A stretch of 64,000 nt of DNA from an uncultured Bacilli bacterium (GCA_963931305.1 OZ006994.1:282955-346954); one strand, 5' to 3'. Shown: positions 1 through 18,652, numbered from the stretch's first letter. Translations and numbers: made by a program. The notes: generated by a model from the letters alone, not told the origin.

Positions 1-35
1 ATGGCAATCGTATTTTACAAATCACCGGTGGATTA

Positions 36-3000
36 GTGAATTATAGCGTTTTTGGTGGTAGTAATGGATATGACGGAGGAAGTAGTGATGGTACTTTATA
101 TGGCTCTTCATATGTTTATATCGGTGGAAATGCTGTCATTGGAAATGATAATTATGTAAATAATAATAGTACTCTTTGGGGTGCAGAAGCTGGATCTGTA
201 TTTGGTAGTGGTAATGGAAATACAAGATATGCAACGATTGGTTCAGTAGATCATTCTAATGTAGTAATTGCTGATCAAGCTGTTGTTAAGAAAAATGTAT
301 ATGGTAGTGGAAACTATGGAACAGCAGGTTATAGTTCAAGTAATAGTTCTACAACGCATATTGAACTACTAGGAGGAACTGTCAATGGATCTATTTTTGG
401 TAGTGGAAATCATAGTGGTTCTGGAAGAAGTGGAAGAGTAACTTCTACCATTTATATTCGATTAAACGGTAGTCATGTCTTAGATTCTATCTACGGAGGA
501 AGTAATCAAGAAGGAACTGTTTACGGAAGTAGTCAAATCACTTTAGAAAACGGAACGACAAAAGATACCTATGGTGGAGGACTTGGTCAAAATACATATA
601 TTAGTCAAAATGTAGATGTTATGGTGGGAACTGAAAATACTTCTAATTTAACTGTAACAGGTGCTGTTTATGGTGGAAGTGCTTTTGGTGTTGTAAATAG
701 TACCACTAAGAATTCAACTGTCAGTTCTTATCCAACCAATGTTGTTGTAAATGCTGGTGATATAGAAAAAGTATTTGGTGGTGGAAAAGGTGATAGTTCG
801 ATTACGCCTTATGTAGCTGGAAATGTGACCGTTACTACCAATGGAGGAGATATTCATTCTTTATTTGGTGGAAATGATGCAAGAGGAGAACCAAATGGAG
901 ATGTCACTGTTTATTTAAATGGGGGTATCATTGAAAATGCTTATGGGGGAGGAAATAATACCCTTGTTACCAATACTTTAGTCTATCAAAAGGGAGCAAC
1001 AGTTACTTCTTTATTTGGTGGTAGTAATCAAAGTGGTAATGTCAATCGTTCACAGATTTATATAGATGGAGGTTATACTGCAAATTTATATGGAGGTAAC
1101 AATGTTGGTGGAAGAACTACTACGACTGAGATAGAAATGACTTCTGGTGAAGTTTCTACTATGTATGGTGGCGGTAAATTAACAGATACCAATACCAGTC
1201 AAATTACTGTATCAAATGGTGTTGTCTCTAACATTTATGGTGGAGGAGAACAAGCTAATATGGTAGATGATACCAATATCCATATTACTGGTGGTACCAT
1301 TCAATCTATTTATGGAGGTTCTAATATTTTAGGAAATGTTCCTACCTCTTATTTAACAATTGATGGAGGTAATATTGATAATGTATATGGAGGAAATAAT
1401 CAAGGAGGAATTACTTCAACTACTAATATTGATTTAAATCAAGGAACCATTGGAACTGTATATGGAGGAGGAAATAAGACCTCTACAACCACATCTCATG
1501 TTGATTTAAATGGATCCAATGTAACTGCTATTTACGGTGGAGGAAACCAAGCTGGAGTAACTACAACAAATGTTAACTTAATTACTGGTACTTCAGATTA
1601 TGTTTTTGGGGGTAGTAATACAAGTGGTAGTGTAGATACGACATATATTTCTGCAACCAATCCAACGAATTTATCAGTGAATAACGTTTATGGAGGAAAC
1701 AATCAAGGTGGATTAACCCATGAGACTTTTATTACCTTAAATGGAGGAAGTTATATTAATCTCTATGGTGGGGGAAATATGGCTCCTACAGATAATACCC
1801 ATGTCACAGTGGATGGTATTGCTATGAATGGTGAATTCTTTGGTGGAGGAAACCAAGCAGAAATTAACTATGATACAAATGTTAAATTTCAAAACTCTAG
1901 TATCGAAGGAGATCTATTTGGAGGCGGAAACCTCGGAGCTGTCTTTGGTAATACCAACGTCTTTATCAGTAATTCACATATCATTAGTAGTATTTATGCA
2001 GGTGGTAATGGAGCAACCGCAATTGTTCATGGTACTACCAAGTTAGATGTCGAAAATAATACCATCGTAGATAAACATGTATTTGGTGGAGGTAACGCTG
2101 CGAATACAGGAATTGAAGGACAAAATAATTCTGTTAGTAAAGTAAATATTGCTGGAGCAACCATCCATGGAAATATTTATGGTGGTGCTAATACAGCAGT
2201 ATTATATGGAATCGTAGAATTAAATATAGGAGAAGTAGATAATACTTTAGTTAAAACACCAATTCGTATTGATGGTACGGTATTTGGTGGAGGAGAAGCA
2301 AATGCTAGTGGAGATCCTAACTACGATTACTCATTTATTAGTGTTACGAAAGGAATACAAATTAAAATTAATGGAAATGGTTATGATGAATTTTATATTC
2401 ATGGTTCTATTTTTGGAAGTGGAAATGCATCTAGTACCGAAGGTTATAGTTATATAGATATTTCTAATTATGGAACTTTTGAAAACTATCAAGAAAATAT
2501 TTCCATTCAAAGAGCAGATATTGTTACATTAAAAAATTCAGCTATTAAATTAGAAGGTACAACCGACCGTACTAATGAATTCTCAACTACTAAGTTTAGT
2601 ATTAGTCGTGTCAAAAAATTAAAAATCGCCAATAATAGTGTTTTATTCTTAGAAAATGGAACAAACTTGTTAGAAAAATGGAATAGTTTAAAAATTGATG
2701 GTGATACCGAAGAAAAAGCAACTGTTACCATTCAAGATGACGGTACAGTTACCAGAAATGTAAACAATCGTGTTTATATGTTAGAAGGAAAAAATATGAA
2801 TATTGCGACCAATGAAGCTGTTACAAGTTATGGAGAAGTAAGTGGTATGACCTTCTTTGGTATGTATCAATTAGATCGTAATAATCGTGTTTTAACCGCT
2901 TTCTATGATAATAAATACGATGCCAATGATACGGTCGCATCAGGAGAATTTTATGCTTTTACATCTGGTAGTTATGTCTTGGGATTACATAATACCAATC

Positions 3001-5027
3001 ACGATATTACAAAAGATGGATTCTATAGTAACTATGAAAATGAAGAAAAAGAAAATACCATCGAAGTAAAATATATTGAACCAACTCCTAGTGATGCTAG
3101 TTATTACATGTGGGTCATTGGAGAAACAGTTACAACTTATGAACTTACTTTAACCGCTTCTAAGTATGCAACCCTAGGAACTTATGAATTACCTCTCGTT
3201 ACCTCTGTTGGAGCAAATACGCAGTTTGAAATTCTAGGATTTAATTATCAAAATCTAGAAGAAGGATTTGAACTAGTAGATCCTGATACCATTGAACGTG
3301 TCAATACAGAAGGAAAAGCAGATGATGTTATGGGACTTCGTATGGAAGCTTCTAATAGTGGTTTTGTAACAAAAGGATATACAGATTTTCAAACCAACAA
3401 TGACACACCAGTTGTCGGGGTTCAAAACTATAAAGCCGAGAACTCTAGTGCGGTACCAAGTTTTATCTTTTATTTATATCATTCTAAGAATTTAACGATG
3501 CAACGTGAATTGGGAACAGTTGTTATTTCTCTTTTGGAAATTAAACCGATTGATGAATTGAATAATGAAGTAACCAGAGTAAATATTAATGTTACTTTAA
3601 ATTCAGCACTTTATGCCAATAATGAGTATGAAGGAGCTATGACTTCTGGAGAAAAATATGATTTATTTGCCTCTACACAGACAAATATTACAAATCAATC
3701 AACGTTGAGTGCTTATTATTCGCTTTATATGGAGACAGATAAGCCATATTACCAACAAGATTATCAACATGCATTAGTATCTAGTTATGTATTTCCAGAG
3801 AAAACAAAAATTACCATGATTGACTTAACAAATGAACCTACTTATTATTATCATGTTATTTCTGAAGAGGATGTTGTAAATGCCAATTTAGAATATCAAC
3901 AATACGGTGAGAGTTCTTATTATTTAAAAGATTTTATAAAAATGGGATCAACGAGTGCTGATAATAATTATCACGAATGGGAAAATATGCAGAAGTATTA
4001 TGATTCTGATTTAGGAATGATTCAAGAAGAGTTTATTTTCATTGTTGATTTTGGAGATACAAATATTACAGGTAATCAAGTAGGGAACTCTTTATTAATC
4101 GAACTTCGTAATGGTGGAAACCAGACTTTAATTGGTGTATTAGGAATTCAACATGCCAATTTAACTTATAATTTATACGATGAACAACAAGCTAAGATTG
4201 ATATTGAAGGAACACTTTCTACTACCGAAGTATATGCTGGAGAGAGTACTGATTTAAATTTAACAACGAACTTTATTCAACCTACGGTGAGTGGATCGAC
4301 TGTTATGGATACAACTTATTTTGATAAGAAGTTAGGAATTCATATTACGATTTATGATGCTAATGGAAATCAATTAAATAATAGTAGTTTACTAGGTTTA
4401 AATTATGAAGTAGATGGTATTACTTATTATCCTCGTATGGATGGAAGTGTTCGTATACCACTTGCTGATAAAGTAGCGAATGTATTTAGTAAAATTAAAA
4501 TTCATACCAATGCTGCAAATTTAGTAAGTGGTACTTATACATTAAAAGTAGAATCGTTTGGTTCTCCGGATGGTATTTATTTTGGAACGACTTCTTCTGA
4601 TCAGTTGGAAATTCCATTTCAATTAATTAATAGTCAATATGGATTAGATGTTTCATTAGACGATACTCAGTTTATGATAGATAAAGATACAGGATTTACA
4701 ATCGATGAGAATAATGCATTAGTATTCCATATGAAATATACATCAAGTTTAGAAAATCCGAATATTAGAGTGCAATTATATCGTAGAAATTATGATGATA
4801 TCTATACAACAAAGTATACGAGTGTTGATTTATTGGATTATGTAACCAATCAAATGGAAGAGACACAAGAATTCGAATATATGTTTGAAGAAAATCCAAC
4901 TGGAAATATGGATAAATTCCTCTATTTAAAAGACCAGTTGACAAGTGGTACTTATAAATTTGTATTTAGACTTTATGATAATCAAACTTTTATTGGAGAT
5001 TCGATAGAATATGTTATAATAAAATAG
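36..5027 (+). CDS. Giant secreted/surface protein, 5'-partial at the window edge. The N-terminal ~800 aa are ~20-22-residue repeats centred on (V/I/L)(Y/F)GG(G/S)N, right-handed beta-helix-like. The C-terminal ~850 aa is non-repetitive.
   Basis: The open frame runs from position 3 with no upstream stop, so the true start lies outside the window. Dozens of GG(S/G)N repeat units are visible by eye. It lies upstream of the SipW cluster. Confidence 0.6.
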   Translation: MNYSVFGGSNGYDGGSSDGTLYGSSYVYIGGNAVIGNDNYVNNNSTLWGAEAGSVFGSGNGNTRYATIGSVDHSNVVIADQAVVKKNVYGSGNYGTAGYSSSNSSTTHIELLGGTVNGSIFGSGNHSGSGRSGRVTSTIYIRLNGSHVLDSIYGGSNQEGTVYGSSQITLENGTTKDTYGGGLGQNTYISQNVDVMVGTENTSNLTVTGAVYGGSAFGVVNSTTKNSTVSSYPTNVVVNAGDIEKVFGGGKGDSSITPYVAGNVTVTTNGGDIHSLFGGNDARGEPNGDVTVYLNGGIIENAYGGGNNTLVTNTLVYQKGATVTSLFGGSNQSGNVNRSQIYIDGGYTANLYGGNNVGGRTTTTEIEMTSGEVSTMYGGGKLTDTNTSQITVSNGVVSNIYGGGEQANMVDDTNIHITGGTIQSIYGGSNILGNVPTSYLTIDGGNIDNVYGGNNQGGITSTTNIDLNQGTIGTVYGGGNKTSTTTSHVDLNGSNVTAIYGGGNQAGVTTTNVNLITGTSDYVFGGSNTSGSVDTTYISATNPTNLSVNNVYGGNNQGGLTHETFITLNGGSYINLYGGGNMAPTDNTHVTVDGIAMNGEFFGGGNQAEINYDTNVKFQNSSIEGDLFGGGNLGAVFGNTNVFISNSHIISSIYAGGNGATAIVHGTTKLDVENNTIVDKHVFGGGNAANTGIEGQNNSVSKVNIAGATIHGNIYGGANTAVLYGIVELNIGEVDNTLVKTPIRIDGTVFGGGEANASGDPNYDYSFISVTKGIQIKINGNGYDEFYIHGSIFGSGNASSTEGYSYIDISNYGTFENYQENISIQRADIVTLKNSAIKLEGTTDRTNEFSTTKFSISRVKKLKIANNSVLFLENGTNLLEKWNSLKIDGDTEEKATVTIQDDGTVTRNVNNRVYMLEGKNMNIATNEAVTSYGEVSGMTFFGMYQLDRNNRVLTAFYDNKYDANDTVASGEFYAFTSGSYVLGLHNTNHDITKDGFYSNYENEEKENTIEVKYIEPTPSDASYYMWVIGETVTTYELTLTASKYATLGTYELPLVTSVGANTQFEILGFNYQNLEEGFELVDPDTIERVNTEGKADDVMGLRMEASNSGFVTKGYTDFQTNNDTPVVGVQNYKAENSSAVPSFIFYLYHSKNLTMQRELGTVVISLLEIKPIDELNNEVTRVNINVTLNSALYANNEYEGAMTSGEKYDLFASTQTNITNQSTLSAYYSLYMETDKPYYQQDYQHALVSSYVFPEKTKITMIDLTNEPTYYYHVISEEDVVNANLEYQQYGESSYYLKDFIKMGSTSADNNYHEWENMQKYYDSDLGMIQEEFIFIVDFGDTNITGNQVGNSLLIELRNGGNQTLIGVLGIQHANLTYNLYDEQQAKIDIEGTLSTTEVYAGESTDLNLTTNFIQPTVSGSTVMDTTYFDKKLGIHITIYDANGNQLNNSSLLGLNYEVDGITYYPRMDGSVRIPLADKVANVFSKIKIHTNAANLVSGTYTLKVESFGSPDGIYFGTTSSDQLEIPFQLINSQYGLDVSLDDTQFMIDKDTGFTIDENNALVFHMKYTSSLENPNIRVQLYRRNYDDIYTTKYTSVDLLDYVTNQMEETQEFEYMFEENPTGNMDKFLYLKDQLTSGTYKFVFRLYDNQTFIGDSIEYVIIK

Positions 5028-5037: not shown

Positions 5038-5163
5038 ATGAATGTAGAACAAGTAAAAACAAGTGAATTATTGGAATGTTATCAATTAATTCAGAATTAT
5101 TTAAAACAATTAGAAACAGAGAAAAAAGAAGTGGAGAAAGATTTAAATGAAGGAACAAATTGA
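5038..5163 (+). CDS. Small hypothetical protein (41 aa, MNVEQVKTSELLECYQ...), translationally coupled to the next gene.
   Basis: A strong RBS (TAGGAGGG) lies 7 nt upstream of the ATG. The stop overlaps the start of the 5147 ORF. It is not in the ORF track because it is under 60 aa. Confidence 0.3.
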   Translation: MNVEQVKTSELLECYQLIQNYLKQLETEKKEVEKDLNEGTN

Positions 5164-6700
5164 AAAAGAGATTTCATTAAGTCAAGAAGTATTTCAAAGC
5201 CTTCCTACGAATAATATTAAGAATCGTAAAAAGTTTTTGACGGAAATTGAAAAAGAAATTGCTCATTATCAAGAACAATTAAACACAATTTATCAAGAAC
5301 TTGAAAACAGACAAAAACCATATATTGGTTTACAAGAAGATCAATATCCAGAGTATGATGATGCATTATTACAATTGACAAAGGCTTTACAGTATACGAA
5401 TAACTTAAGTACTGCTTATGAAAAATTAAAATTAGATAAAAGTATTTATCATTTAAATCATTATCAAGCAAGTGATTTAAAAGAAAATAATAAAACATTA
5501 AAACGTATTGTCGATGTATTTAAGAAAGCAGGTATTCCATTACAAAGTAAAGATTTTACATATACAAAATTTGTTACAGAGTATATGGAATCCTTCTTCT
5601 CTTATCAATATTATTTAGATAGTCGAGATTTAGAGAAAGTATTTGAAAACTTATATTGGAAAGATCCATATTTAATTTTAGAAATTGAATTAAATATTCG
5701 TCATCTATATTTAAAAAATCAAGTTAAGTTTGAGAAATATATTAAAAATTTAACTCGTCAATTATTAACACAATTTGAAAAAGGTGAGAAAAATATCATT
5801 GATGATTATGCTTACTTAAGGCATAAGTTAGAACAACTACAATTAGAAAATCGTAATAATTTATTGTATCATTTTGTGAATGATGATTATCATGTAGAAG
5901 ATTATACAGAAGAGAAGATTCATTCACTGATAAAAAAATATTTTATTTCTTATCAAGAAGGTCAAAATTTAGATGAGATATATGAAAATACGTTAAAGTT
6001 ATTACATTCGTTAGAAGAATATCGTAATTATCGTATTTGTGAACCATTTATTGAAAAAATGAAGAAATTGTATCATGAACCATTAGAAAAAAATATAATA
6101 TCAAAACATGAGAAAAAGATTCGTGAATTAGAAAAGAAGTTATTTAAATTAAATAAGAAGTCTACAAATTCTTTGAAAAAGACAAAAGTAGATGAATTAG
6201 AACCTAAAATTAATCAAGTGATTCAGGAAATTCATGAACAATATACAGAAATTGATAAAGTTATGTTTCAATATGTATTAAAGGAACATATTCGTGATAA
6301 TTCTACAATTTTTAAAGCATTATTGTTACTGAGTCAATATTATTGGTTTATAGCAGATTTATGTCGAGAGCAAGATGCAAATAGTGATTATGAGACAATT
6401 GATAATAACTATCAACAATTATTATCTTTTGTGTTAAATCCTGATAATACGATGATTAATAATATTACTATGGTAGGAGATATCGATATTTCTGATATGG
6501 TTATTTCTAATTATCAATTGTTGGGAATACAAATTACAAAAGATATGTTAGAAGATAATAATTTAACGTTGTGTATGGAAGATTTAAAAAAGATTTTAAT
6601 CTATCATCAATTACAAAAATTTGATATTTCAATTTCATCTTTGATGGATATGAAAAAAATTCAGAAAATTATGGAAGCTAATAATTCCATGTCTAAATAA
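5147..6700 (+). CDS. Hypothetical coiled-coil-rich protein (517 aa)
   Basis: Long ORF, same strand as its neighbours, heptad-like K/E/L-rich composition. No motif recognised. Confidence 0.45.
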   Translation: MKEQIEKEISLSQEVFQSLPTNNIKNRKKFLTEIEKEIAHYQEQLNTIYQELENRQKPYIGLQEDQYPEYDDALLQLTKALQYTNNLSTAYEKLKLDKSIYHLNHYQASDLKENNKTLKRIVDVFKKAGIPLQSKDFTYTKFVTEYMESFFSYQYYLDSRDLEKVFENLYWKDPYLILEIELNIRHLYLKNQVKFEKYIKNLTRQLLTQFEKGEKNIIDDYAYLRHKLEQLQLENRNNLLYHFVNDDYHVEDYTEEKIHSLIKKYFISYQEGQNLDEIYENTLKLLHSLEEYRNYRICEPFIEKMKKLYHEPLEKNIISKHEKKIRELEKKLFKLNKKSTNSLKKTKVDELEPKINQVIQEIHEQYTEIDKVMFQYVLKEHIRDNSTIFKALLLLSQYYWFIADLCREQDANSDYETIDNNYQQLLSFVLNPDNTMINNITMVGDIDISDMVISNYQLLGIQITKDMLEDNNLTLCMEDLKKILIYHQLQKFDISISSLMDMKKIQKIMEANNSMSK

Positions 6701-6740: not shown

Positions 6741-7274
6741 ATGAAGAAAGTTTTAAAGTGTATTTTAGGAATCATAGGAATATGTTATTTTGCAGTTGTA
6801 ATTGTAGTAACTGCTTGTTTACTTTGTTATAATCAATATAAAGTAACAGAAATGTTTGGTTATACATTTGTTATGATAGATGATAATTCTGATATGTATA
6901 ACAATGGTGATTTAGTGTTATTTCAGGAAAATGAATTAAATGATATTCGTCGTAATGATACGATTTTCTTTTATGAAGTAACCAATGGAGTTGCAAGTAT
7001 TCGTTATGGAACGGTAACTGAAATAATGCCAGTTACAAATGAAGAAAAGACATTTACTATAAATAATAATCATGATATTTCTAGTGAAAGTTTAATTGGA
7101 AAGACAGATACTGCCAAAGTAGTTCCAAAACTAGGACAAGTATTAACGGTATTAGAATCAAGATTTGGCTTTTTAATTCTTGTGATTTTACCAACATTAA
7201 TTCTATTCTTATATGAGTTATATCGTGTGATTGTAGAGATTAAAACGCCAATTGATGATGAAGAAGACGAATGA
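6741..7274 (+). CDS. SipW-like (ER/archaeal-type signal peptidase I) paralog lacking the catalytic Ser and His; a predicted pseudo-peptidase
   Basis: Same architecture as the true SipW at 7864: N-terminal TM, the ...GDL(V/I)... core, a C-terminal TM. Where SipW has SNSMAP it has D-N-S-D-M. Where SipW has VTHRV it has VASIRY. Confidence 0.5.
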   Translation: MKKVLKCILGIIGICYFAVVIVVTACLLCYNQYKVTEMFGYTFVMIDDNSDMYNNGDLVLFQENELNDIRRNDTIFFYEVTNGVASIRYGTVTEIMPVTNEEKTFTINNNHDISSESLIGKTDTAKVVPKLGQVLTVLESRFGFLILVILPTLILFLYELYRVIVEIKTPIDDEEDE

Positions 7275-7843
7275 AAAAGATACTAATTACGATCAGTATC
7301 GTCTTTTTCGTTTTTACTGTACTGCAAATTGGAAATAGTTTTGGTGTATTTGAAACAAAGATTGAAAATGAAAGTGAGTTAGAGATTGCAAAATGGAATA
7401 TCTATGTTAATGATTATGATTTAAATGGTAATCAACAAACATTTTATGTCGATGAGATTACTTATCAAGATCAAAAAGGAAATTCTGTAGATTACTTTGC
7501 CCCTGGAGTAACAGGATCATTTCTAATTGTGATTGATCCTAAAAATACAGAAACCGCATTTACTTATTCGCTTTCTATCGATTTGAGTCAAAATGATTAT
7601 GAACAAATACAAGTAGATGAAATAAAAGGATTGAATGGGCTGCAATTGACAGAACAAAATGGTGTATATAGTCATTTAGTTACGTTACCATCTATTGAAA
7701 GTGGAATAAAAGATACGATTCAAGTAACTTTTCATTGGGAGATGGATGAGAAATATAATGACAGTGATTCTTCTTTAGGACAAGATCCAGATAGTCAATT
7801 TAAAATACCAATTTCCATTCAGTTTGAACAATATATGAATTAG
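7271..7843 (+). CDS. Secreted protein with SipW-cognate-type signal peptide (...QIGNSFGVFETK...)
   Basis: N-terminal hydrophobic segment followed by an (A/G)xF(E/S/T) motif, as in TasA/CalY-class substrates. Overlaps its neighbours by 4 nt, so it is in an operon. Confidence 0.5.
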   Translation: MKKILITISIVFFVFTVLQIGNSFGVFETKIENESELEIAKWNIYVNDYDLNGNQQTFYVDEITYQDQKGNSVDYFAPGVTGSFLIVIDPKNTETAFTYSLSIDLSQNDYEQIQVDEIKGLNGLQLTEQNGVYSHLVTLPSIESGIKDTIQVTFHWEMDEKYNDSDSSLGQDPDSQFKIPISIQFEQYMN

Positions 7844-7863
7844 AATAAAAGGGTGGTGATCTG

Positions 7864-8436
7864 ATGCAACAAGAGATAATTTATAAAATTGCTAAAATAC
7901 TTGGAAATGTATTGTTTGCTATTTTAGGGTTAATTTTAATGATTTGTTTGTATTCTTTTGTTAGTGTAAAAATATTTTCTCATAAATATGTGAATTTATT
8001 TTCTTATACTTTCTTTCAGATTGCCAGTAATAGTATGGCTCCTGCCATTACTACTAATGATTTAATTGTTGTTCATTTAAATGATGATATTAAAGAAAAT
8101 GATATTGTTACATTTGAAGATGGAGATTCATTTGTGACACACCGTGTGATATCAGTAACAGATCAAGGATATATTACCAAGGGAGATGCAAATAATAGTG
8201 AAGATCAAGCAATTTTAAAAGAACAAGTAGTAGGGAAAGTCGTGCAGATTCTTCCTAATTTTGGAGTATGGTTTAAAGTAATTACAACTCCTAAGATTGT
8301 AATACTTGTGTGTATTACACTATTATGTTTTTCTCTTGCTTTTTCTTATACTGGTAAAAAGTATTTATCGAAAAATGATGATTTTGGTATCTACTATTCT
8401 GGAATTCAAATGAAAAAGGAGCATTCAGATGATTGA
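7864..8436 (+). CDS. sipW: Signal peptidase I, SipW (ER/archaeal) type
   Basis: N-terminal TM. SNSMAP box (catalytic Ser), THRV box (His), KGDANNSED box. C-terminal TM. Sits between genes whose products carry cognate signal peptides. Confidence 0.75.
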   Translation: MQQEIIYKIAKILGNVLFAILGLILMICLYSFVSVKIFSHKYVNLFSYTFFQIASNSMAPAITTNDLIVVHLNDDIKENDIVTFEDGDSFVTHRVISVTDQGYITKGDANNSEDQAILKEQVVGKVVQILPNFGVWFKVITTPKIVILVCITLLCFSLAFSYTGKKYLSKNDDFGIYYSGIQMKKEHSDD

Positions 8437-8983
8437 TAAAAAGAAATTTTTATATTTTAATCGTATTACGATTGCAGTGATAGGTATTTTTCTTTTGTTA
8501 TCTATTACTCAGTTTGCTTTTTCTAGATTTTATACAGATAGTCATGGAGAAGCAATTAGTGAAATTGCCTTTTATACGATTCATCCTGGTAGTCAAACAC
8601 AGAGTTTAAAAATGTTTGATATCAAACCAGATGGAAAAGATTATATTTATGATATTCAAGTTTCTAATACCAAAGATGGGAATGTAAGTGAGGTAGATTT
8701 AGAGTATCAACTTTCATTACGAACAACGACGAATATACCCGTTGAGTATAAGATTTATTTAAATGGTAGTGTTGATAATAGTTTAAATCAACGAGAAATA
8801 ATACAAGATGAAGATGGTATGTATTTCTTTTTGTTTCACGCAAATACGAATTATTTTGATAAAAATATAGAAAAGACAGATGTTTATCGTTTAATTGTTA
8901 ATTTTCCAAAAGAGTATAATCAAGAAGAATATCAAGATTTAATTGATAGTGTAGAAGTAACGATTGATGCCAAACAAGTGTAA
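8429..8983 (+). CDS. Membrane-anchored/secreted protein with SipW-cognate-like N-terminus (…ITQFAFSRFYTDSHGEA…)
   Basis: ATGA overlap with sipW. N-terminal TM followed by an AFSRFYTD motif. Confidence 0.45.
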   Translation: MIDKKKFLYFNRITIAVIGIFLLLSITQFAFSRFYTDSHGEAISEIAFYTIHPGSQTQSLKMFDIKPDGKDYIYDIQVSNTKDGNVSEVDLEYQLSLRTTTNIPVEYKIYLNGSVDNSLNQREIIQDEDGMYFFLFHANTNYFDKNIEKTDVYRLIVNFPKEYNQEEYQDLIDSVEVTIDAKQV

Positions 8984-9080
8984 ATTTAAAAAAAATGTCG
9001 AAAATGTATTGCGATATAAAATCAAGATATGATAAAATGTGTATAGTAAAAGATATAGTAGAATAGGTAGGGATTTTTTT

Positions 9081-10109
9081 ATGGCAAAAACAAAAAAACA
9101 AAAAAAAGCTCAGATGAAGAAAAGAAGATTGTTATTATCTCTTCTTCTATTAGTCGGAACAGGTGTATTCCTTGGTACTGCCACTTATGCATGGTTTACT
9201 GCGAATCAAACAGTTGCTGTAAATCCAATTGATGTAAATGTTGCAGCTCAAAGTGGTTTACAAATTTCAGCAGATGGAAAGAATTGGAAATCAATTTTAA
9301 CTACGACAGATATTACAAGTGCTAGTGGTACTTATGCAGCAGCTAAAAACCAACTTCCAACACAGTTGGCACCAGTATCAACAGCAGGTGTTATGAATGC
9401 GGATGGAAAGATGGAAATGTTTTTAGGATCTGTCACTTCTAATGAAGATAGTGGTAACTTTATTTTATCAGCATCAAAAGAAACAGATGCAAATGGAACA
9501 ACAGGAAATTATGTTGTATATGATATGTTCTTACGTACTGAAGCTGCTGGACCAGTTTATTTGACAACAAATTCAGGAATTTCATTTGCTGATGATCAAG
9601 ATAATGGTATTAAAAATGCGACACGTGTTGCCTTTGCAGTATTAGGTAATACGAGAAGTGATGATACAATTTCAAAAATTCAAGGATTAAATAGTGGTGC
9701 TGCATCACCAGTTACTATTTGGGAACCAAATTTTGATGATCATACTTCATATGGTGTGGCAAATGCGCGTGATACTTATGGAAATGATACTTTAACGGCT
9801 GGTCCTGGAAACGCTGCGGTTGCTTATGATGGTATTAAAGCAGCATTTGGTACAGATCAAAATATTACACTTGGTAATGCAAACGCTACATCTGCTGCTG
9901 CTTATTTCCAAAAAGTTACTCCAACAATTCAAACTGAGGTAGGTTTTTCAGAATATAAGCAATTAGTAACTTTAAGTGCCGGAGTTACTAAGATTAGAGT
10001 ATACTTCTGGATTGAAGGTCAAGATGTAGACTGTGAAAACAATGCATCTGGTGGAAATATTTCATTTGATTTACAAATTAGTAGAAATGATTCTGCTGCA
10101 GGAGCATAA
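9081..10109 (+). CDS. TasA/camelysin (CalY, peptidase M73)-family secreted protein
   Basis: N-terminus MAKTKKQKK…LLLLVGTGVFLGTATYAWFTANQT matches the TasA/CalY signal-peptide region (GGGT(F/W)A(F/A)F(S/N)D). Ala/Gly/Thr-rich mature part. The start was moved to the ATG at 9081; the track ORF starts at 9039. Confidence 0.6.
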   Translation: MAKTKKQKKAQMKKRRLLLSLLLLVGTGVFLGTATYAWFTANQTVAVNPIDVNVAAQSGLQISADGKNWKSILTTTDITSASGTYAAAKNQLPTQLAPVSTAGVMNADGKMEMFLGSVTSNEDSGNFILSASKETDANGTTGNYVVYDMFLRTEAAGPVYLTTNSGISFADDQDNGIKNATRVAFAVLGNTRSDDTISKIQGLNSGAASPVTIWEPNFDDHTSYGVANARDTYGNDTLTAGPGNAAVAYDGIKAAFGTDQNITLGNANATSAAAYFQKVTPTIQTEVGFSEYKQLVTLSAGVTKIRVYFWIEGQDVDCENNASGGNISFDLQISRNDSAAGA

Positions 10110-10137
10110 AAGAATGAATTTTCATTCTTTTTTTTTT
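10110..10137 (+). terminator. Rho-independent terminator after the TasA-like gene
   Basis: AAGAATGAA-tttt-CATTCT hairpin followed by T9. Confidence 0.6.
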
Positions 10138-10190: not shown

Positions 10191-11390
10191 ATGGAAAAGA
10201 CAGATATTATTAAAAGTATCAGCAACCGTACAGGTGGTGATATTTACTTAGGAGTAGTAGGGGCAGTACGTACAGGAAAGTCTACTTTTATCAAAAAAGT
10301 GATTGAAACTTTAGTTGTCCCTAACATCGAAGATGAATATGAAAAGAAAAGAGCACTCGATGAGATTCCACAAAGTGCTCAAGGTAAGACAATTATGACA
10401 ACAGAGCCAAAGTTTGTACCGAGTCAAGCAGCTACCATTCATATTGATGAAGTAGAAGCTAAAATTAGACTTGTTGACTGTGTAGGGTATGTCATTCCGA
10501 ATGCCAAAGGTTATGAGGATGAGAATGGTCCTAGAATGGTAAAAACACCATGGTATGATGAACAAATACCATTTGTGGAAGCCGCAGAAATTGGAACAGA
10601 AAAAGTAATTAAAGATCATTCTACAATTGGGATTGTTGTAACAACTGATGGTTCGATTGGAGAATTAACTAGAAATGATTATATAGAAGCAGAAGAAAGA
10701 GTTGTCTCTGAATTAAAAGAAATGGGAAAACCTTTTATTATTATTTTAAACTCTACCCATCCAATGTTACCAGAAACAGAGCGATTGAGTGAAAAACTAA
10801 CAGAAACTTATGAAGTACCTGTACTTCCAATTAGCGTAGAAAATATGACAGAACGAGATATTTATAACATTCTAAGAGAAGCTCTTTATGAATTTCCAGT
10901 CGCAGAAGTAAATATTAATATGCCAGAATGGATTGGATGTTTATCTAAAGATCATTGGTTAAAGAAAATATATGTAGAAAAGATTAGAGAAAGTGTGATT
11001 GACATTGATAAATTAAAAGATGTTGATCAAATTATTACACCATTTCAAGATTGTGAGTATATCTCTCGTGCATACTTATCAGATGTTAATACTGAAACTG
11101 GTGTGATTACTCTTACATTAGATTGCCCGAATGATTTATATGGCACTGTATTAAAAGAAATTATCGGTGTAGATATTACATCAAAATCAGCTCTTTTATC
11201 ACTCTTCCAAGAATATCAAGTAGCAAAAAAAGAATACGATCAAGTAAAAGATGCACTTGCAATGGTAAAACAAACTGGTTATGGAGTTGCGACACCAACA
11301 CTGCAAGATATGAAATTATCAACCCCAGAAATTATTAAACAAGGAAGTCGTTATGGTGTAAAATTAAAAGCAGTAGCTCCCTCAATTCAC
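10191..11390 (+). CDS. spoIVA: Stage IV sporulation protein A, 5' segment (codons 1-400), interrupted by an inserted element. The ORF reads through into the element and ends at 11477 with unrelated residues.
   Basis: MEKTDIIKSISNRTGGDIYLGVVGAVRTGKSTFIKK… (Walker A) and near-colinear similarity to B. subtilis SpoIVA up to …GSRYGVKLKAVAPSIH. Similarity is then lost exactly where SpoIVA continues MIKVDVES. Confidence 0.9.
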
Positions 11391-11499
11391 ATAATATGTA
11401 CAAAAAGGAAGCGTACTCATTTGAGAGACTGCTTCCTTTTCAAAGATATAAGAAACATACTATTACCTACTATGTAGATGTAGATATTTCTTTCATTAA

Positions 11500-11562
11500 C
11501 TATAATCAATTATAACACACTTTCGACTAACTTACACACTTTTTGACTAGGTGTGTGTTTTA
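11500..11562 (+). promoter_or_regulatory. Operator-like repeats upstream of the XRE regulator gene: ACACACTTTCGACTAA … ACACACTTTTTGACTAGGTGTGTGT
   Basis: Direct repeat of ACACACTTT(c/tt)GACTA. The second copy forms a palindrome ACACAC-n-GTGTGT. A TATAAT-like element follows. Confidence 0.35.
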
Positions 11563-11605
11563 TACTATCACTTATATAATTTTTATATAAGGTGGTGGTA
11601 CTACT

Positions 11606-11896
11606 TTGACTTTAAGAAAAGATATAAAAGATATTTTCAAACAAAATTTGAGATACTATCGTTTAAAAAATAAACTAACTCAAGAAGATTTAGCTGTAAA
11701 GTCTGATTTAACTGATAAATATATATCTGATTTAGAAAGAGGAATATTCTCACCAAGTTTAGAAAAATTAGATATGTTAGCAGAAGCTCTTAATATTGAT
11801 ACATATTTATTATTAAAAGATGACCACTCTGAAGAGAAACTACCTAATAGATTAGATATAATTACAAAAACAAGAAAATCGAAAAGAAAGTATTAA
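11606..11896 (+). CDS. XRE-family helix-turn-helix transcriptional regulator
   Basis: …LTQEDLAVKSDLTDKYISDLERG… HTH_3 pattern. RBS AAGGTGGTGG. First gene inside the element. Confidence 0.7.
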   Translation: MTLRKDIKDIFKQNLRYYRLKNKLTQEDLAVKSDLTDKYISDLERGIFSPSLEKLDMLAEALNIDTYLLLKDDHSEEKLPNRLDIITKTRKSKRKY

Positions 11897-12115
11897 CATT
11901 ATCACAATATCATAAAACTTAATATACCTTTGATAATGAGAGTAACATTTTATTAAAAAGTGTTACTTTCTTTCTTTTATTACCCATTTAAAACGTGGTT
12001 AATGTTTTATTAAAGTAATATAAATTATTAACTTTAAAGAAAAAGTGTCCCAAAATGAACGTGAGATACTTTAGAATTGATGTTTTAATAATACTTATAC
12101 TAGTGGTTACTTTAA

Positions 12116-12877
12116 ATGTTAAAACTAATTATAATAGACCCTATATTTCAAGGTAAGGTTGATAGTATGACTATATTTAGAACAGTTAAAGATAATAATT
12201 ATACAGTAATCAGTAATACATATTTAAAAGATGAGAATTTAAGTTTTGGTGCTATTGGACTAATGACAGTATTATTATCTTGTAAAGATGATACAAAGTT
12301 TAGTGTCAGTTTAATCAGTAAAATAAGTCATAAGAGTAATAAAGTGATAACAAAGTATCTTAATGAATTAAAAAGAAACAAGTATATCTATGTAAAAAAG
12401 AAAAACACAAGAGATGGTTTTAAGTATGAGTATTCAATATATGAGTGTAAGGACTTTAACCCTTATTTTCTTAATATTAGCCCAGATACCCAAAACCCAA
12501 CATGGGAAAGCCCACCTATGGAGACGGGTAATACTATAATAAATACTATTAATAAACAAGATAAAATAGATAAAACAAAATTGAACTTGTGTTTTTTAAC
12601 TGAAAGTATTATTGACTCTGACTTTATTAAAGAAAATGATATTAATTTATTAAGTTATAACAACTTTCTATCTAAACTATTAGAAGAAAATAATAATCGA
12701 CTAGTTATTCAAGTTGTAAGGTATGTTGTAAAGAGAATTAAAGATAATGATTATTTAGATGAGAAGTCTAATCCTATTGAAAATCTACTTACTTATTTTA
12801 AGTCATCAGTTATTAATAATTTAGAGTCTATGAAAGTTCGAGCTGATGACTCTCTCTTTGATGACTGGGAAGAATAA
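12116..12877 (+). CDS. Replication initiator / phage replisome-organiser-like winged-helix protein. True start possibly the ATG at 12167.
   Basis: N-terminal wHTH-like segment (…FGAIGLMTVLLS…SLISKISHKSNKVITKYLNELKRNKYIY…) resembling the RepA_N / phage_rep_org_N class. Weak memory-based call. Confidence 0.35.
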   Translation: MLKLIIIDPIFQGKVDSMTIFRTVKDNNYTVISNTYLKDENLSFGAIGLMTVLLSCKDDTKFSVSLISKISHKSNKVITKYLNELKRNKYIYVKKKNTRDGFKYEYSIYECKDFNPYFLNISPDTQNPTWESPPMETGNTIINTINKQDKIDKTKLNLCFLTESIIDSDFIKENDINLLSYNNFLSKLLEENNNRLVIQVVRYVVKRIKDNDYLDEKSNPIENLLTYFKSSVINNLESMKVRADDSLFDDWEE

Positions 12878-13245
12878 CCTCTACTGATAGTAATAATTAA
12901 GAAGAACTTGATAATAAATATAGAATATTTATATATCAATTTTCTTTTTAAGTTACTATCATCTCTTTGTATTTTGGAGTATCGCAGATTAACGAAAGAT
13001 TAAAACTAATAAAATTATATAAGGAATAGTAAAACTAATCCCAGAAGTACTCCAAAATAAACGTAGGATGACTTATGGTAATAGTCTTACTTTACCAATG
13101 ATAAAAGAAAGTGTATTTAATCAACCTCACTAATGGAATTAGAGTTTTTAAATATTATTAGAATAATAATATTTAAGAAAAATTGGTAGTTTACAAACTA
13201 TAAAAACTTGATAATATAACCACTAATAAGAAAGGTGGTGTATTT

Positions 13246-13497
13246 ATGAACGATAAGTCAAATATAATCTTACGAATAGAAAAATTATCTAAACTATCAA
13301 ATGAATTAAAAGATACTGAAGTTTGTAAGGTTATAAAGAAGATATTAGACTTAATTAATGATATTTATATTTTAATTCCACAAAAAAGAATTAATAGGTG
13401 TAAATATTGTAGCGAACTCACAGATAGTCAAGACCCAAATATACTATGTCCTAATTGTATAGAAACATTCGGACATAGTTTTTTTAGTGAATTATAG
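13246..13497 (+). CDS. Small zinc-ribbon protein (CKYC…CPNC)
   Basis: Two CxxC pairs. RBS AAAGGTGGTG. Confidence 0.4.
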   Translation: MNDKSNIILRIEKLSKLSNELKDTEVCKVIKKILDLINDIYILIPQKRINRCKYCSELTDSQDPNILCPNCIETFGHSFFSEL

Positions 13498-13512
13498 AAA
13501 GGAAAATTAAAT

Positions 13513-13800
13513 ATGTTAAATCAAATAATATTTGTAGGAATACTAAAAGAAATGATTATTAAAGATGATTATTACATTATAAAATTAGAAGTACCAAGAC
13601 GTATAAAAGAAAATGATACTAAACGTAGTGATATTATTACTTTAAAAAAATATGGAATTAATCAACTTATGGAAGAACAAATGGAAATAGACGGTATTGT
13701 TGGTGTTAAAGGACATATTGAAACAGATGATAATGAAATAATGACAAACGTAATAGACAAACTTACATTTCTATCATCAAAGAAAAGGAGTAATAAATAA
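13513..13800 (+). CDS. Small OB-fold, SSB-like protein (tentative)
   Basis: Resembles an SSB OB fold: N-terminal IIFVGILKE, a KLEVPRR segment, a GIVGVKGHIE hairpin. Low confidence. Confidence 0.3.
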   Translation: MLNQIIFVGILKEMIIKDDYYIIKLEVPRRIKENDTKRSDIITLKKYGINQLMEEQMEIDGIVGVKGHIETDDNEIMTNVIDKLTFLSSKKRSNK

Positions 13801-14480
13801 TGGGTGTACTTGATATACATTATAAATACGACTATAAAGGTCGCTTACTTTATATGTTGTTACTAAACTATTATAGAAAGTATTACTCTGACAATAAATT
13901 TAATGGTAAAGTAGTTGTCGCTTGTTCTACTACATCAAGACTTATGAAAGACTATGATATTTTTTATAATACTATCAATTTATTAACAGTTAGTGATATT
14001 ATTAAATTAAATAACTTTACTTACTTCTATGATAAACAACTAAAATTACTCTTTAAAAGGTTAAGAGAAAAAAACGTTAGTTATGATAAATTAATCAAAG
14101 GAATTAAAGAAGAATATACTAAAGATAAATCTTTATATTATGATGACCTCTGTGATAACCACCACAACTTACCTAGTGATAAAAATGTTATATTTGTTGA
14201 AGTAAATAATTTAGTTCAAATATATAGTAAATACTTAATTAGAGATATATTTATTCCAGAGAAACAATATGTATCACAACTAGAGAGACAACATGGTGGT
14301 TTATACTTTGTTTTAAGTGAATATGTAGAAGAATTTATTAAGATGATTAATATATTAAAAGCTCACATTAATATACAAGATGATTTTCTTAAATTAAATC
14401 TATTTATTGATACTGATAAAGGTATAGATATAATTGACAAAGTTAACAGTAGAACAAGAGATGAAGAAGATGAGGAATAA
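13800..14480 (+). CDS. Hypothetical protein (226 aa) with acidic C-terminal tail
   Basis: ATGA-type overlap with the upstream gene. No motif recognised. Confidence 0.45.
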   Translation: MGVLDIHYKYDYKGRLLYMLLLNYYRKYYSDNKFNGKVVVACSTTSRLMKDYDIFYNTINLLTVSDIIKLNNFTYFYDKQLKLLFKRLREKNVSYDKLIKGIKEEYTKDKSLYYDDLCDNHHNLPSDKNVIFVEVNNLVQIYSKYLIRDIFIPEKQYVSQLERQHGGLYFVLSEYVEEFIKMINILKAHINIQDDFLKLNLFIDTDKGIDIIDKVNSRTRDEEDEE

Positions 14481-14481
14481 T

Positions 14482-14898
14482 ATGTTCGCAGATGAATTAA
14501 TTAATAAATTTTTAGATAGTGAAACTTATAAAGAATATGACAAGATTTACAAAGATAAAAACTATGTTGACCCACAACTATTAAAACAATTATTACTAGA
14601 ACACCACGACTTATATGAATTATTTTTAAAAGCGAATATCATTTTATATAAGTATGAGACCAAAGGATTAAAGAAAAGTTTTAACGACTGTTATTATCAT
14701 AATGAAAAGAGATTATTTTTAGAAGATGTATATAATGTTTTACTATATTACTACTCTCACTACTCTAGGTGTCAGACTGTTTTAAAAAAGATGATACAAT
14801 TAAAACTTGTACCAATGAGTGAAAGAAAAATATTAAAACTTATTCTTAATAGAGATATAAGTAAAGAGCTTATTCCACTTAACTTGACACAACTATAA
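14482..14898 (+). CDS. Hypothetical protein (138 aa). Start moved to the ATG at 14482, which has a GAGGAA RBS.
   Basis: The track ORF start at 14434 lies inside the upstream gene. The ATG just after that gene's stop has a good RBS. Confidence 0.4.
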   Translation: MFADELINKFLDSETYKEYDKIYKDKNYVDPQLLKQLLLEHHDLYELFLKANIILYKYETKGLKKSFNDCYYHNEKRLFLEDVYNVLLYYYSHYSRCQTVLKKMIQLKLVPMSERKILKLILNRDISKELIPLNLTQL

Positions 14899-14989
14899 TA
14901 TTAACAGTTTGAGAAAATGAAATTTTATGCTATACTATTGATAGAGTAAAGTAGAAGTCATACAGTTGGTAAATTGTGAGAGGTGTAGT

Positions 14990-16081
14990 ATGGAAAATGT
15001 AATAATGATAGTCCTAATAACAGTAATTTTAATAGGAACATCAATATTTCTTGAAAAGATTTTTAACAAACCAAGAGAAAAGTATAATTGGGATAAGCCA
15101 CCAAAGTTTTACTTTTATATCAGTATGTTTATACCTATTGTTGGTTTTATTATGTGGTGTGTATTTGTTAATCATAAACCTAATTCGGCAAAGTCAGCCG
15201 GAAGTGGTGCATTATGTAATATACTTTTATCAATTATAATTGTATTAAGTGCTTGGTTAATTAATTATTCTGTTTCGTTCGTAAACAATAATATTTTAGT
15301 TGAAGAATATACCAATACATACAATATTCATTTAAATACAGAAATGTCTGATAATTTAGATAAATATGATTTTGAAATGACAGTTACTTATACTGGAAAT
15401 AAAGAATATTTAGATAGATTTAAAGAAATGTATGAAGATGAAATATTCCCAAATAATCAATTAAATATAGATTTTGATGACATAGAAGAAACAAATAACA
15501 ACACCTATGATTTAATTCCATATATTGAAAATTATATTGATGAATTTTTTAATAACTATATAACTATGTATAAAAGTGCAGACGCTTATTCATCATTAGA
15601 ATATATAAAATATAAAATTAAAGAAAAAGAAATCATTGTTAAAGAATTAGTATTAGATGATGAAGAAATTTTGTTAAATTATGCAGTAGATAGTTTTAAC
15701 GATTATAATGGAGTAAAATTAAAAGTCGGAGATAAAGTGGATGTTTATTTTATAGATGAAGAAAATAAAGTGTTTTTTAAAATTATAAATAATAGTACAC
15801 TATTGAGTATTAAAAATGCTAGTGGAGAAAACATAACTAGTGGAATACCATCTATGTTTATCTTAACTGTAAAAGACAGTTACATAATAGATTTCATAAA
15901 TGCTTTCACATATAATTCATCAAGTAATAGATTTAGAACAGTTATTATTAAGCATGGCTCTACATTTTCATTAAATAATTATGAAGAATTAGAAAGTATT
16001 GATGATTATAATGATATGAGATTAAATAGTAATGAAGTTCCAACTGAAACTTTCGGTATAATTGGAGAGGTGCAAGAATGA
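14990..16081 (+). CDS. Membrane protein (363 aa): N-terminal 3 TM carrying the conserved FIPIVGFIMWC-VN-KP--AK-AG module, plus a soluble C-terminal domain
   Basis: Start moved to ATG 14990, which has a GAGAGGTG RBS. The module is shared with the C-terminus of the next gene. Confidence 0.5.
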   Translation: MENVIMIVLITVILIGTSIFLEKIFNKPREKYNWDKPPKFYFYISMFIPIVGFIMWCVFVNHKPNSAKSAGSGALCNILLSIIIVLSAWLINYSVSFVNNNILVEEYTNTYNIHLNTEMSDNLDKYDFEMTVTYTGNKEYLDRFKEMYEDEIFPNNQLNIDFDDIEETNNNTYDLIPYIENYIDEFFNNYITMYKSADAYSSLEYIKYKIKEKEIIVKELVLDDEEILLNYAVDSFNDYNGVKLKVGDKVDVYFIDEENKVFFKIINNSTLLSIKNASGENITSGIPSMFILTVKDSYIIDFINAFTYNSSSNRFRTVIIKHGSTFSLNNYEELESIDDYNDMRLNSNEVPTETFGIIGEVQE

Positions 16082-16569
16082 GTGATGCTTTATTTGAAGA
16101 AATAAATGATTTTAATGAAATAATTGTCAAACAAGACTTTATTAAAATAACAAAAAGTAATGATACTAAAGTTTATTATTTTAGTAAAATAGATTATAGC
16201 AGAAGCTTTAAAACAAATCTTAATGGCGACTATGTTGAAGTTAATATTTATGTTGATAATCAAGATGTCCTATTCATGATAAGAAAAGAAAATTTCTTGA
16301 AATTTAAAGAGATAATTACACCAATAAAAAGAGGTTATGAAAATACAGACTTTACTATTAATGAACAACATGAGTTATATAACCCAAGAGAAGATGACAA
16401 CCCTTCTCCTATTTATGTTATTGTTGGCTTCTTTATTCCAATATGTGGTTTTATTATGTGGTGTATATTAGTTAATACAAAACCAAAAACAGCTAAAATG
16501 GCTGGAATAGCTGGTATAATTGGTTTTATCATTAATTTTATAATATTTATTTATATCTTAACGAATTAA
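16078..16569 (+). CDS. Membrane protein (163 aa): soluble N-terminal domain plus a C-terminal paralogous FIPICGFIMWCILVNTKPKTAKMAG TM module
   Basis: ATGA overlap with the upstream gene. The ~45-aa module is duplicated in the two adjacent genes. Confidence 0.5.
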   Translation: MSDALFEEINDFNEIIVKQDFIKITKSNDTKVYYFSKIDYSRSFKTNLNGDYVEVNIYVDNQDVLFMIRKENFLKFKEIITPIKRGYENTDFTINEQHELYNPREDDNPSPIYVIVGFFIPICGFIMWCILVNTKPKTAKMAGIAGIIGFIINFIIFIYILTN

Positions 16570-16584
16570 AAGGAGTTAATAGTA

Positions 16585-17511: not shown

Positions 17512-17556
17512 GGTACTAATATAGTACCTTTTCTTAATACATATAAAGAAAGAGAG

Positions 17557-18006: not shown

Positions 18007-18224
18007 ACTATATAGAATTATATTGTAAAACAGTAATACAACCATTAGAGAAGATGAGAAATCAAATTTTAGATAAATATTACTCATCCATTTTCTTTAA
18101 GTCAAAATATAAATTACTATTAGATAAAATTGATGAAGAGTTAATGAATAAGTACAATAAGTTTAATGATATGATAGAAGAAGAAACAAAATTTCAAGAA
18201 TTATTAAAAGACAGTGTTAAGTAG
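18003..18224 (+). CDS. Small hypothetical protein (73 aa)
   Basis: ATGA overlap with the upstream ATPase gene. Confidence 0.35.
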   Translation: MNYIELYCKTVIQPLEKMRNQILDKYYSSIFFKSKYKLLLDKIDEELMNKYNKFNDMIEEETKFQELLKDSVK

Positions 18225-18311
18225 CACTGTTTTATTTTTACACTCTTTTTATATATGATAATGAACGACTTTTTATCAAAGTACATAAAAGTTAACGAAA
18301 GGACTGATACT

Positions 18312-18596: not shown

Positions 18597-18652
18597 TTGT
18601 ACTTTGTTAAAACTCTGTATTAAAATATTAATTATTTAGAAATGAGGTAATT

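Follow-up and report, generated by a model that had tools for sequence, protein, structure and literature searches.

Several bacterial loci are known in which a dedicated signal peptidase (SPase) of the endoplasmic reticulum (ER) type, SipW, is encoded together with its substrates, an accessory and a major protein, and which work independently of sortases, such as tapA-sipW-tasA in Bacillus subtilis and sipW-tasA-calY in Bacillus cereus. In Clostridium perfringens, the sipW-bsaABCRSD operon encodes BsaA, a protein of about 23 kDa whose export depends on SipW and which polymerises, without a sortase, into very stable assemblies (PMC7395162), and loci of the TasA superfamily commonly bring together genes for major and minor subunits and a tip protein with those for an SPase I and an accessory protein of the SPase (bioRxiv 10.64898/2026.01.04.697558). 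Catalytically dead SPase paralogs are already known as well, from the bacterial P-type lineage. SipA of Streptococcus pyogenes has the SPase fold and cleft, with Asp and Gly where active enzymes have Ser and Lys; it lacks peptidase activity, and pili do not polymerise without it (PMC4049620). SpsA of Staphylococcus aureus is an inactive SPase I paralog that lacks both catalytic residues (PMC12414704). Here we describe a gene cluster from an uncultured Bacilli bacterium (GCA_963931305.1, OZ006994.1:282955-346954; the 64,000 nucleotides (nt) of this stretch are called the window below) in which a SipW-type enzyme and a SipW paralog that has lost the catalytic residues are encoded side by side with candidate substrates. 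No description of a pseudo-peptidase of the SipW lineage was found in the text of the open-access literature.

The locus, at positions 6741-10137 on the plus strand, consists of five closely packed genes (aa, amino acids; TM, transmembrane segment; ORF, open reading frame; arrows in motifs mark the cleavage junction):

6741-7274, plus strand: pSipW, 177 aa; SipW homology; TM, beta core, TM, acidic tail
7271-7843, plus strand: s190, 190 aa; signal peptide and SFG↓VFETK motif, followed by a secreted beta-sandwich of about 165 aa
7864-8436, plus strand: SipW, 190 aa; TIGR02228 above cut-off; Ser57, His93, Asp108
8429-8983, plus strand: s184, 184 aa; AFS↓RFYTD motif; distant paralog of s190
9081-10109, plus strand: maj342, 342 aa, within an ORF at 9039-10109; invariant TYA↓WFTAN N-terminus and C-terminal WIEGQDVDCENN motif

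The stop codon of pSipW and the start codon of s190 share 4 nt (ATGA), and the stop of SipW and the start of s184 overlap by 8 nt.

The second of the two peptidase-like genes (7864-8436) is predicted to encode a true ER/archaeal-type signal peptidase I. Its product reaches 82.5 bits against the NCBIfam model TIGR02228 (cut-off 51.85) and 28.9 bits against Peptidase_S24 of Pfam (cut-off 23.3), and its TM segments lie at residues 5-23 and 133-151. Ser57 (SNSM), His93 (THRV) and Asp108 (KGDAN) align with the SGSM, VHRV and KGDNN boxes of human SEC11A/C, in agreement with the original prediction, made from this DNA alone, that the gene keeps the Ser (SNSMAP) and the His (THRV). Since NF046067, the equivalog model for Bacillus SipW, gives only 65.9 bits against a cut-off of 190, we regard the protein as being of the same type as B. 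subtilis SipW and not as its strict ortholog.

The first gene, pSipW, is related to these enzymes, as had been proposed, and carries no conserved dyad, either in the usual or in shifted positions. Residues 10-168 match positions 6-170 of the 189 positions of NF046067 (E 9e-6), with bit scores that stay below the cut-offs (25.4 versus 190 for NF046067 and 25.5 versus 51.85 for TIGR02228), and a Pfam search with the window protein gave no Peptidase_S24 or S26 match. The two neighbours match each other by BLASTP (E 8e-7), their families align by hhalign over 140 columns (97.4%, E 1.4e-11), and the TM segments of pSipW, at residues 3-21 and 136-154, give it the same TM-core-TM topology as SipW, which had also been noted originally. 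When 73 non-redundant pSipW sequences and 122 SipW sequences were aligned jointly, Ser was seen in the nucleophile column of 117 of the SipW sequences and of none of the pSipW sequences, and His in the His column of 118 and none, respectively. Glu (14 sequences), Asp (11) or a gap (30) occupy the nucleophile column in pSipW, and the Leu/Met-x-Pro beside it is often retained.

The pSipW copy of the window does contain a Ser, S50, in a DNSDM sequence near the Ser box, aligned by BLASTP with Ser57 of SipW, and a single His, H111, that is situated in the ectodomain and outside the His box. In most orthologs Leu, Glu, Asp or a gap takes the place of S50, and in distant ones Tyr, Lys, Glu or Leu that of H111; a shifted S50/H111 dyad was therefore rejected, neither residue being conserved across the family. 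The earlier description of this gene as having D-N-S-D-M in place of the Ser box and no His was right in that the catalytic Ser and His are gone, and has to be corrected in that a Ser near the box and a His are present, both of them unconserved. Invariant in the family are the ectodomain residues G56, D57, L58, F77, T104, I119, G120 and G132, as well as ES 139-140 and P151; the ectodomain has no further conserved Ser, His or Lys, and the invariant residues include no Ser/His or Ser/Lys pair. They are structural boxes (GDL, IGK and the C-terminal TM) common to pSipW and true SPases, not a dyad.

Measured against six orthologs each, dN/dS is 0.09-0.18 for pSipW and 0.08-0.15 for SipW, values that are approximate because dS is about 1 and near saturation. 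Since the ratio matches that of the active enzyme, pSipW is a maintained pseudo-enzyme under the same purifying selection, and a pseudogene was rejected given both this ratio and a reading frame that is intact in 59 loci, down to 28-35% identity. These observations identify 6741 as a maintained and, by prediction, non-catalytic SipW paralog rather than a decaying gene. Its homologs form 116 database clusters at 90% identity, none of which carries a functional name (two are named "hypothetical protein") and only one of which, a weak match, has a Pfam domain. The accessory-protein domain DUF5305 (PF17231) matches pSipW with 13.8 bits, where the gathering threshold is 29 (E 0.039), and is found similarly weakly in three of 19 family members; membership in this family was rejected, these matches being too weak and no better than weak ones to Peptidase_S24. 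One homolog of 178 aa, P0069, from a 3.3-kb contig of the European Nucleotide Archive, has the N-terminal third of a true SipW (ASDSMAP) and is otherwise identical to pSipW sequence P0032, and is either a recombinant or an assembly chimera.

Related loci numbered 59 in species-representative genomes, all of them metagenome-assembled genomes or metagenome scaffolds of uncultured bacteria. Most are labelled as uncultured Bacilli, "Tenericutes", Mycoplasmatota, Acholeplasmataceae, Clostridia or Clostridium sp. CAG:451, CAG:567 and CAG:780, with a few bins labelled Bacteroidaceae, Muribaculaceae, Sphaerochaetaceae or Lachnospiraceae, and several source records refer to human or animal gut samples. 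A dedicated SipW is encoded beside its putative substrates in the window and in the 59 genome-derived loci. According to tblastn and gene calls, the closer loci share the order giant gene, 41-aa gene, 517-aa gene, pSipW, s190, SipW, s184 and maj342, and the core formed by pSipW, s190, SipW and s184 is kept down to about 30% identity. At least one SipW with intact Ser and His is present in 63 of the 66 pSipW loci; as to the other three, two lie on contigs that are too short (L007, 1.2 kb, and L059, 2.1 kb), and in L051 (9.8 kb, with 6.5 kb downstream of pSipW) no SipW was found. An s190-like gene directly follows pSipW in 59 of the 66 loci. The observation that an intact SipW adjoins 6741, with both genes placed among proteins that have a SipW/TasA-type cleavage motif, is thus borne out by conserved gene order.

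The s190 and s184 families align by hhalign over 121 columns (95.2%, E 2.7e-8). Because the two are distant paralogs, the core of the cluster is a tandem duplication of a two-gene module, a SipW-like gene followed by a gene for a secreted protein of about 190 aa, in which one of the two peptidases has been inactivated. This paralogy, as well as the wide spread of the cluster, had been missed by the original prediction. Larger loci go further in the same direction, containing a second pSipW-like gene, a third SipW in which Asp is replaced by Ile or Val, extra small "YAWFIY" or "YAKY" proteins, a multi-TM protein and a DUF2357 protein, and a maj342 paralog also occurs upstream of the giant gene in related loci. 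The features concerned, which belong to loci other than the window, are these:

L006:13845-20172 and L004:12224-18191: extended form with a conserved block, missing from the window, of a second pSipW-like protein, a signal-anchored protein of about 305 aa, a cytoplasmic protein of about 320 aa, a multi-TM protein of about 506 aa, the DUF2357 protein, the third SipW and a small "YAWFIY" protein
L044:8140-8721, L049:7519-8067, L056:8559-9131 and L063:8438-8980: second, independently dead SipW paralog, the second gene after the giant gene
L035:16778-18025, L040:17113-18366, L047:17137-18390 and L048:17005-18288: SipW-substrate-like fusions

In the four independently dead paralogs Ser is replaced by Thr, Ala or Leu and His by Cys, Arg or Ser; orthologs of this gene elsewhere keep Ser and His and are missing the Asp. 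The four fusions are single ORFs of about 417 aa, in which a SipW with intact Ser and His is followed by a Lys/Glu-rich linker, a TM with "AF/YAWFIY" and a secreted domain of about 190 aa. They look like fusions of an enzyme with its substrate, and support a one-to-one functional pairing, in which every peptidase-like gene has its partner in the next gene downstream.

Three further genes precede pSipW in the window:

1-5027, plus strand: 3' part of the giant gene; ORF open from the window start, running off the 5' end
5038-5163, plus strand: conserved ORF of 41 aa, without TM, from the ORF listing; overlaps the start of the next gene by 17 nt
5147-6700, plus strand: 517-aa protein with heptad-like repeats, without a TM segment in a Kyte-Doolittle scan

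The giant protein, with full-length orthologs of 2325-2370 aa, is secreted and beta-helix-like, with GGxN-rich repeats, and no family was matched in a Pfam search. Its gene sits upstream of pSipW in most related loci that have enough upstream flank, and the N-terminal signal peptide of its orthologs ends in A-F-(S/T)-Y-G↓x-x-K-T. Being a conserved member of the cluster with a similar signal motif, it does appear to be part of the same system, as had been suspected. Gene calls in L001 and L006 put homologs of the 41-aa ORF, encoding 38-42 aa, in the corresponding position. The 517-aa protein, which is presumably cytoplasmic, keeps its position in the closer loci (24-75% identity), and Pfam and NCBIfam gave sub-threshold matches only.

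The secreted proteins share a recognisable junction between signal peptide and mature protein, which reads T-Y-A↓W-F-T-A-N in maj342 (invariant in the family), S-F-G↓V-F-E-T in s190 and A-F-S↓R-F-Y-T in s184. The signal part of TasA (UniProt P54507) ends in T-W-A. The N-terminus of mature TasA, AFND, was confirmed in PDB 8aur, and fits the shared motif as T-W-A↓A-F-N-D. When a hand-defined motif, [AGSTC][FYW][AGST]x[FYWL]x[STNDAE], was sought within the first 70 residues, it was present in 52 of 57 s190, 26 of 61 s184 and 32 of 32 maj342 members, compared with one or two expected from shuffled sequences. The NCBIfam signal model TIGR04088 matches 29 of 35 maj342-family members (best E 1.3e-5), the window copy itself having 15.2 bits versus a cut-off of 19; it matches no member of the s190 family, and a single-protein scan of the s184 window protein gave no match. 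The N-terminal motifs that had been noted in three proteins are real and far above chance in all three families, and TIGR04088 recognises the maj342 family only. No LPXTG motif, SLH or other wall anchor and no sortase domain was detected in the cluster proteins by Pfam and motif scans.

The secreted families are large and mostly nameless. There are at least 1921 clusters of maj342 at 90% identity and 1590 representatives of s190 at 50% identity; neither s190, s184 nor maj342 has a Pfam or NCBIfam family of its own, whether searched as single proteins or as family members, none of ten s190 representative clusters that were looked up has a name, and one maj342 match is labelled by the Joint Genome Institute only as a peptide with a SipW-like signal peptide. 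AlphaFold2 models are beta-sandwiches for both maj342 (predicted local distance difference test, pLDDT, 83.3; predicted template modelling score, pTM, 0.81) and s190 (pLDDT 77.4), and each model is of low confidence in the stretch that directly follows the signal peptide. Donor-strand segments of TasA-superfamily monomers have been reported as low-confidence in models (bioRxiv 10.64898/2026.01.04.697558). Within maj342, the most conserved stretch of the family, at residues 310-323 or so, is an invariant and acidic W-I-E-G-Q-D-V-D-C-E-N-N-A-S. By analogy with the fibres of AbpX and CanA, this C-terminal motif could bind a metal such as Ca2+.

The original prediction had called the largest of these proteins TasA/CalY-like, and this could not be upheld. 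Peptidase_M73 gave no match at E up to 10 with the three proteins and 94 family members (35, 29 and 30), sequence profile searches of the PDB with the secreted families did not match TasA, and hhalign against TasA (its sequence verified against 8aur) gave just 3.8%, 0.6% and 0.2%. Foldseek searches of the PDB returned generic sandwich matches for maj342 (CBM6, E 0.05), and C-CPE, collagen-binding and pilin domains for s190 (E of 0.003 or higher), TasA being absent among the top 50 matches listed for either model. Membership of s190, s184 and maj342 in the TasA/camelysin group was thus negative in the sequence searches with Pfam, NCBIfam, PDB profiles and hhalign.

How does this cluster compare with the systems described so far? 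It resembles the tapA-sipW-tasA and sipW-tasA-calY operons in its dedicated SipW, in its independence of sortases, in having an accessory or minor protein besides a major one and in the cleavage motif, T-W/F/Y-A↓x-F-x-D/S/T, which is the same. In contrast, neither operon has a pseudo-peptidase, the substrates found here fall outside Peptidase_M73/TasA by the sequence tests run, and the cluster has in addition the giant protein (in orthologs about 2300-2400 aa long), duplicated modules and two cytoplasmic proteins. The C. perfringens operon, likened here by its description, also has SipW followed by a small secreted protein, BsaA, and encodes more small ones (BsaB, BsaC and BsaD), whereas it contains a single SipW and a two-component regulator, and neither a dead paralog nor a giant protein. 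The loci of AbpX, Tafi and AbpA have the same parts list, with an SPase I of the TIGR02228 type and an accessory protein built as TM, beta-sandwich, TM; there, however, the accessory protein is a DUF5305 protein and not an SPase paralog, and the subunits of the cluster described here are not detectably of the TasA superfamily. To our knowledge, the accessory subunits of the eukaryotic signal peptidase complex (SPC) are not SEC11 paralogs. The likeness to this complex (PDB 7p2p, 7p2q) lies in the SEC11-type active enzyme and in the idea of non-catalytic membrane partners.

Among the dead paralogs, SipA (LepA) is similar in being an SPase I homolog without catalytic residues that is encoded in a fibre operon, with an acidic residue replacing the Ser as in pSipW. 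SipA, however, derives from the P-type lineage of bacteria (Ser/Lys, LepB-like) and acts on LPXTG pilins together with sortases. pSipW matches the ER/archaeal-type models best and derives from that lineage (Ser/His, SipW/SEC11); it has an additional TM at its C-terminus, adjoins an active paralog and is part of a cluster without sortase or LPXTG. We therefore do not consider pSipW a member of the SipA family; rather, it looks like a SipA-type solution on a SipW/TasA-type system. SpsA likewise lies directly beside its active paralog, SpsB (PMC12414704), and differs in its P-type lineage and in being located in a housekeeping secretion locus, outside a fibre/substrate operon.

On balance, we slightly favour seeing the window as a compact form of a sortase-independent cluster for a secreted surface structure, a SipW-dependent fibre with a non-catalytic SipW partner. 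SipW would cut the TasA-type signal peptides (small-aromatic-small↓x-aromatic) of all exported parts, among which the giant repeat protein might be the tip or an adhesin, s190 and s184 minor subunits or a base/anchor, and maj342 the major building block. pSipW would bind the signal peptide/cleavage region of a subunit without cutting it, the likeliest client being its translationally coupled neighbour s190, and, either by itself or paired with SipW in a heterodimer, it would serve as a holdase or assembly partner in the membrane, positioning or retaining that subunit so that assembly is ordered, as SipA of S. pyogenes does for sortase pili. A non-catalytic chaperone or scaffold role, which had been suggested from the start, is plausible by this analogy, and fibre formation, possibly by donor-strand exchange, is what we infer from known systems.

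Several points weigh against this reading. The three secreted families have no detectable kinship to TasA, camelysin or a solved fibre subunit, so that the word fibre follows from the logic of the locus and not from homology, and a contact between pSipW and s190 or SipW is inferred solely from gene order and analogy. In addition, the strict cleavage motif is present in just 26 of the 61 s184 members, TIGR04088 is absent from the s190 family, and the dN/dS values are approximate, with dS near saturation. A more elaborate version, which we put forward only tentatively and believe somewhat doubtful, would start from the duplicated modules of a SipW-like protein and a subunit: repeated duplication would have brought single loci to as many as five or six genes of the SipW family, some of them independently inactivated and some fused to a substrate, the dead paralog might serve as the substrate-selecting or substrate-holding subunit of a two-subunit signal-peptidase machine formed with SipW, and the modules would order the release and joining of giant tip, minor and major subunits into a so far undescribed, sortase-independent fibre with subunit families unrelated in sequence to TasA.

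One may also consider alternative explanations for pSipW, and the one that survives best, though we would give it limited credence, is that it is a non-catalytic subunit of a heteromeric SPase complex, tuning the specificity or stability of SipW or the thinning of the membrane, with no chaperoning of subunits, which would make it a bacterial counterpart of accessory subunits in the eukaryotic SPC, or of DUF5305 proteins, the "SPase I accessory" proteins found in AbpX and Tafi loci. The presence of an active SipW alongside pSipW in 63 of 66 loci and the identical two-TM topology are consistent with this, as are the weak DUF5305 matches of the window protein (E 0.039) and of three of the 19 family members, DUF5305 proteins being built as TM, beta-sandwich, TM and cytoplasmic part and sometimes fused to SPase I (bioRxiv 10.64898/2026.01.04.697558). 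However, the DUF5305 score (13.8 versus 29 bits) is no better than that of weak Peptidase_S24 matches, the tightest coupling of pSipW is to s190, by the 4-nt overlap, and not to SipW, and no fusion of pSipW with SipW was seen among the 66 loci, the chimera P0069 being a swap. Such a complex overlaps with the fibre reading that we favour, and the two are not mutually exclusive.

Alternatively, pSipW might be an anti-peptidase that covers the cleavage region of s190 and keeps it uncleaved, so that s190 remains membrane-anchored as the base of the fibre, which we consider unlikely. A base or anchor role has been proposed for TapA and AbpB in other systems. With no LPXTG, SLH or other wall anchor in the cluster, an anchoring device would be needed; the translational coupling of pSipW to s190 also fits, and the replacement of the Ser mostly by Glu or Asp, with the next Leu/Met-x-Pro kept, would be consistent with a preserved binding cleft. 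Nevertheless, this explanation is purely inferential, and 52 of 57 s190 members have small residues at positions -3 and -1 (S-F-G or T-Y-A), which is the pattern expected for a cleaved substrate and would not need conserving in a protein that is never cut.

Still less probable is a third scenario, in which 6741 is a decaying duplicate, or in which the cluster encodes independently secreted proteins (an adhesin, an S-layer-like coat or a toxin) that form no fibre. No secreted family has a characterised homolog, and SpsA of S. aureus was long seen as a possible product of a pseudogene (PMC12414704). Decay is nonetheless contradicted by the frame that is intact in 59 loci to 28-35% identity, by dN/dS and by the invariant fold boxes, and independent secretion by features typical of multi-subunit assemblies: genes in a strict order, a dedicated signal motif that the proteins have in common, and several small paralogous subunits in each locus. 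Finally, that pSipW is still a peptidase by way of shifted residues, for example S50 in DNSDM together with H111, is hardly credible in spite of the BLASTP alignment of S50 with Ser57 of SipW and the one His in the ectodomain, given that both residues are replaced in orthologs and that the invariant residues hold no Ser/His or Ser/Lys pair.

Two neighbouring features of the locus in the window, one before maj342 and one after it, are the following:

9009-9038, plus strand: promoter-like site, a consensus match only (TTGCGA, 18 nt, TG-TAAAAT), in the 97-nt gap before maj342
from 10191, downstream of maj342: spoIVA, from a profile match

A scan of the cluster region for sigma-70 promoters and terminators gave 42 sites versus 38 expected, that is, no overall enrichment, and it is the position alone that makes the site at 9009-9038 suggestive. 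Translation of maj342 probably starts at the ATG at 9081, since a database protein of 342 aa that is 100% identical begins there, at MAKTKK, and the promoter-like site ends at 9038; the GTG at 9039, which would give a longer protein, is unlikely.

The adjacency of spoIVA persists in the closest genus (L008-L012) and has been lost from other loci, for example from L001, where ABC transporters occupy its place. The suggestion of a spore-surface system, which was based on this adjacency only, accordingly found no support, and a spore appendage or coat was rejected, spoIVA being simply the next gene. In the window spoIVA is split, residues 1-402 being encoded at 10191-11396 and residues 399-491, 100% identical to the intact ortholog in L010, at 26656-26934. 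What lies between the two can be listed as follows:

about 11397-26661: intervening element of about 15.3 kb that interrupts spoIVA
11606-11896: XRE-like repressor, in the element
21946-23829: primase/helicase-like gene, 627 aa, in the element
25026-26681: large serine recombinase, 551 aa, in the element and abutting the 3' spoIVA fragment

The intervening element is skin/SP-beta-like and sits within a sporulation gene of the mother cell. Its presence is polymorphic, with the same truncated tail in L009 and an intact spoIVA (491 aa) in L008 and L010, and a literature search found no report of an element that interrupts spoIVA.

The concept of an inactive SPase in a secretion locus has precedents, and the pattern seen here is clean, widespread and testable. 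With the enzyme, the pseudo-enzyme and the candidate clients all adjacent, the cluster offers a clean natural system for probing the role of a non-catalytic SPase, and the three large families without a Pfam or NCBIfam model (pSipW, s190/s184 and maj342) could be curated. The comparison with SipA suggests that an inactivated SPase may have been recruited as an assembly factor independently in both lineages of SPase I, and the cluster itself may represent a new class of fibre or adhesin on the surface of commensals about which little is known.

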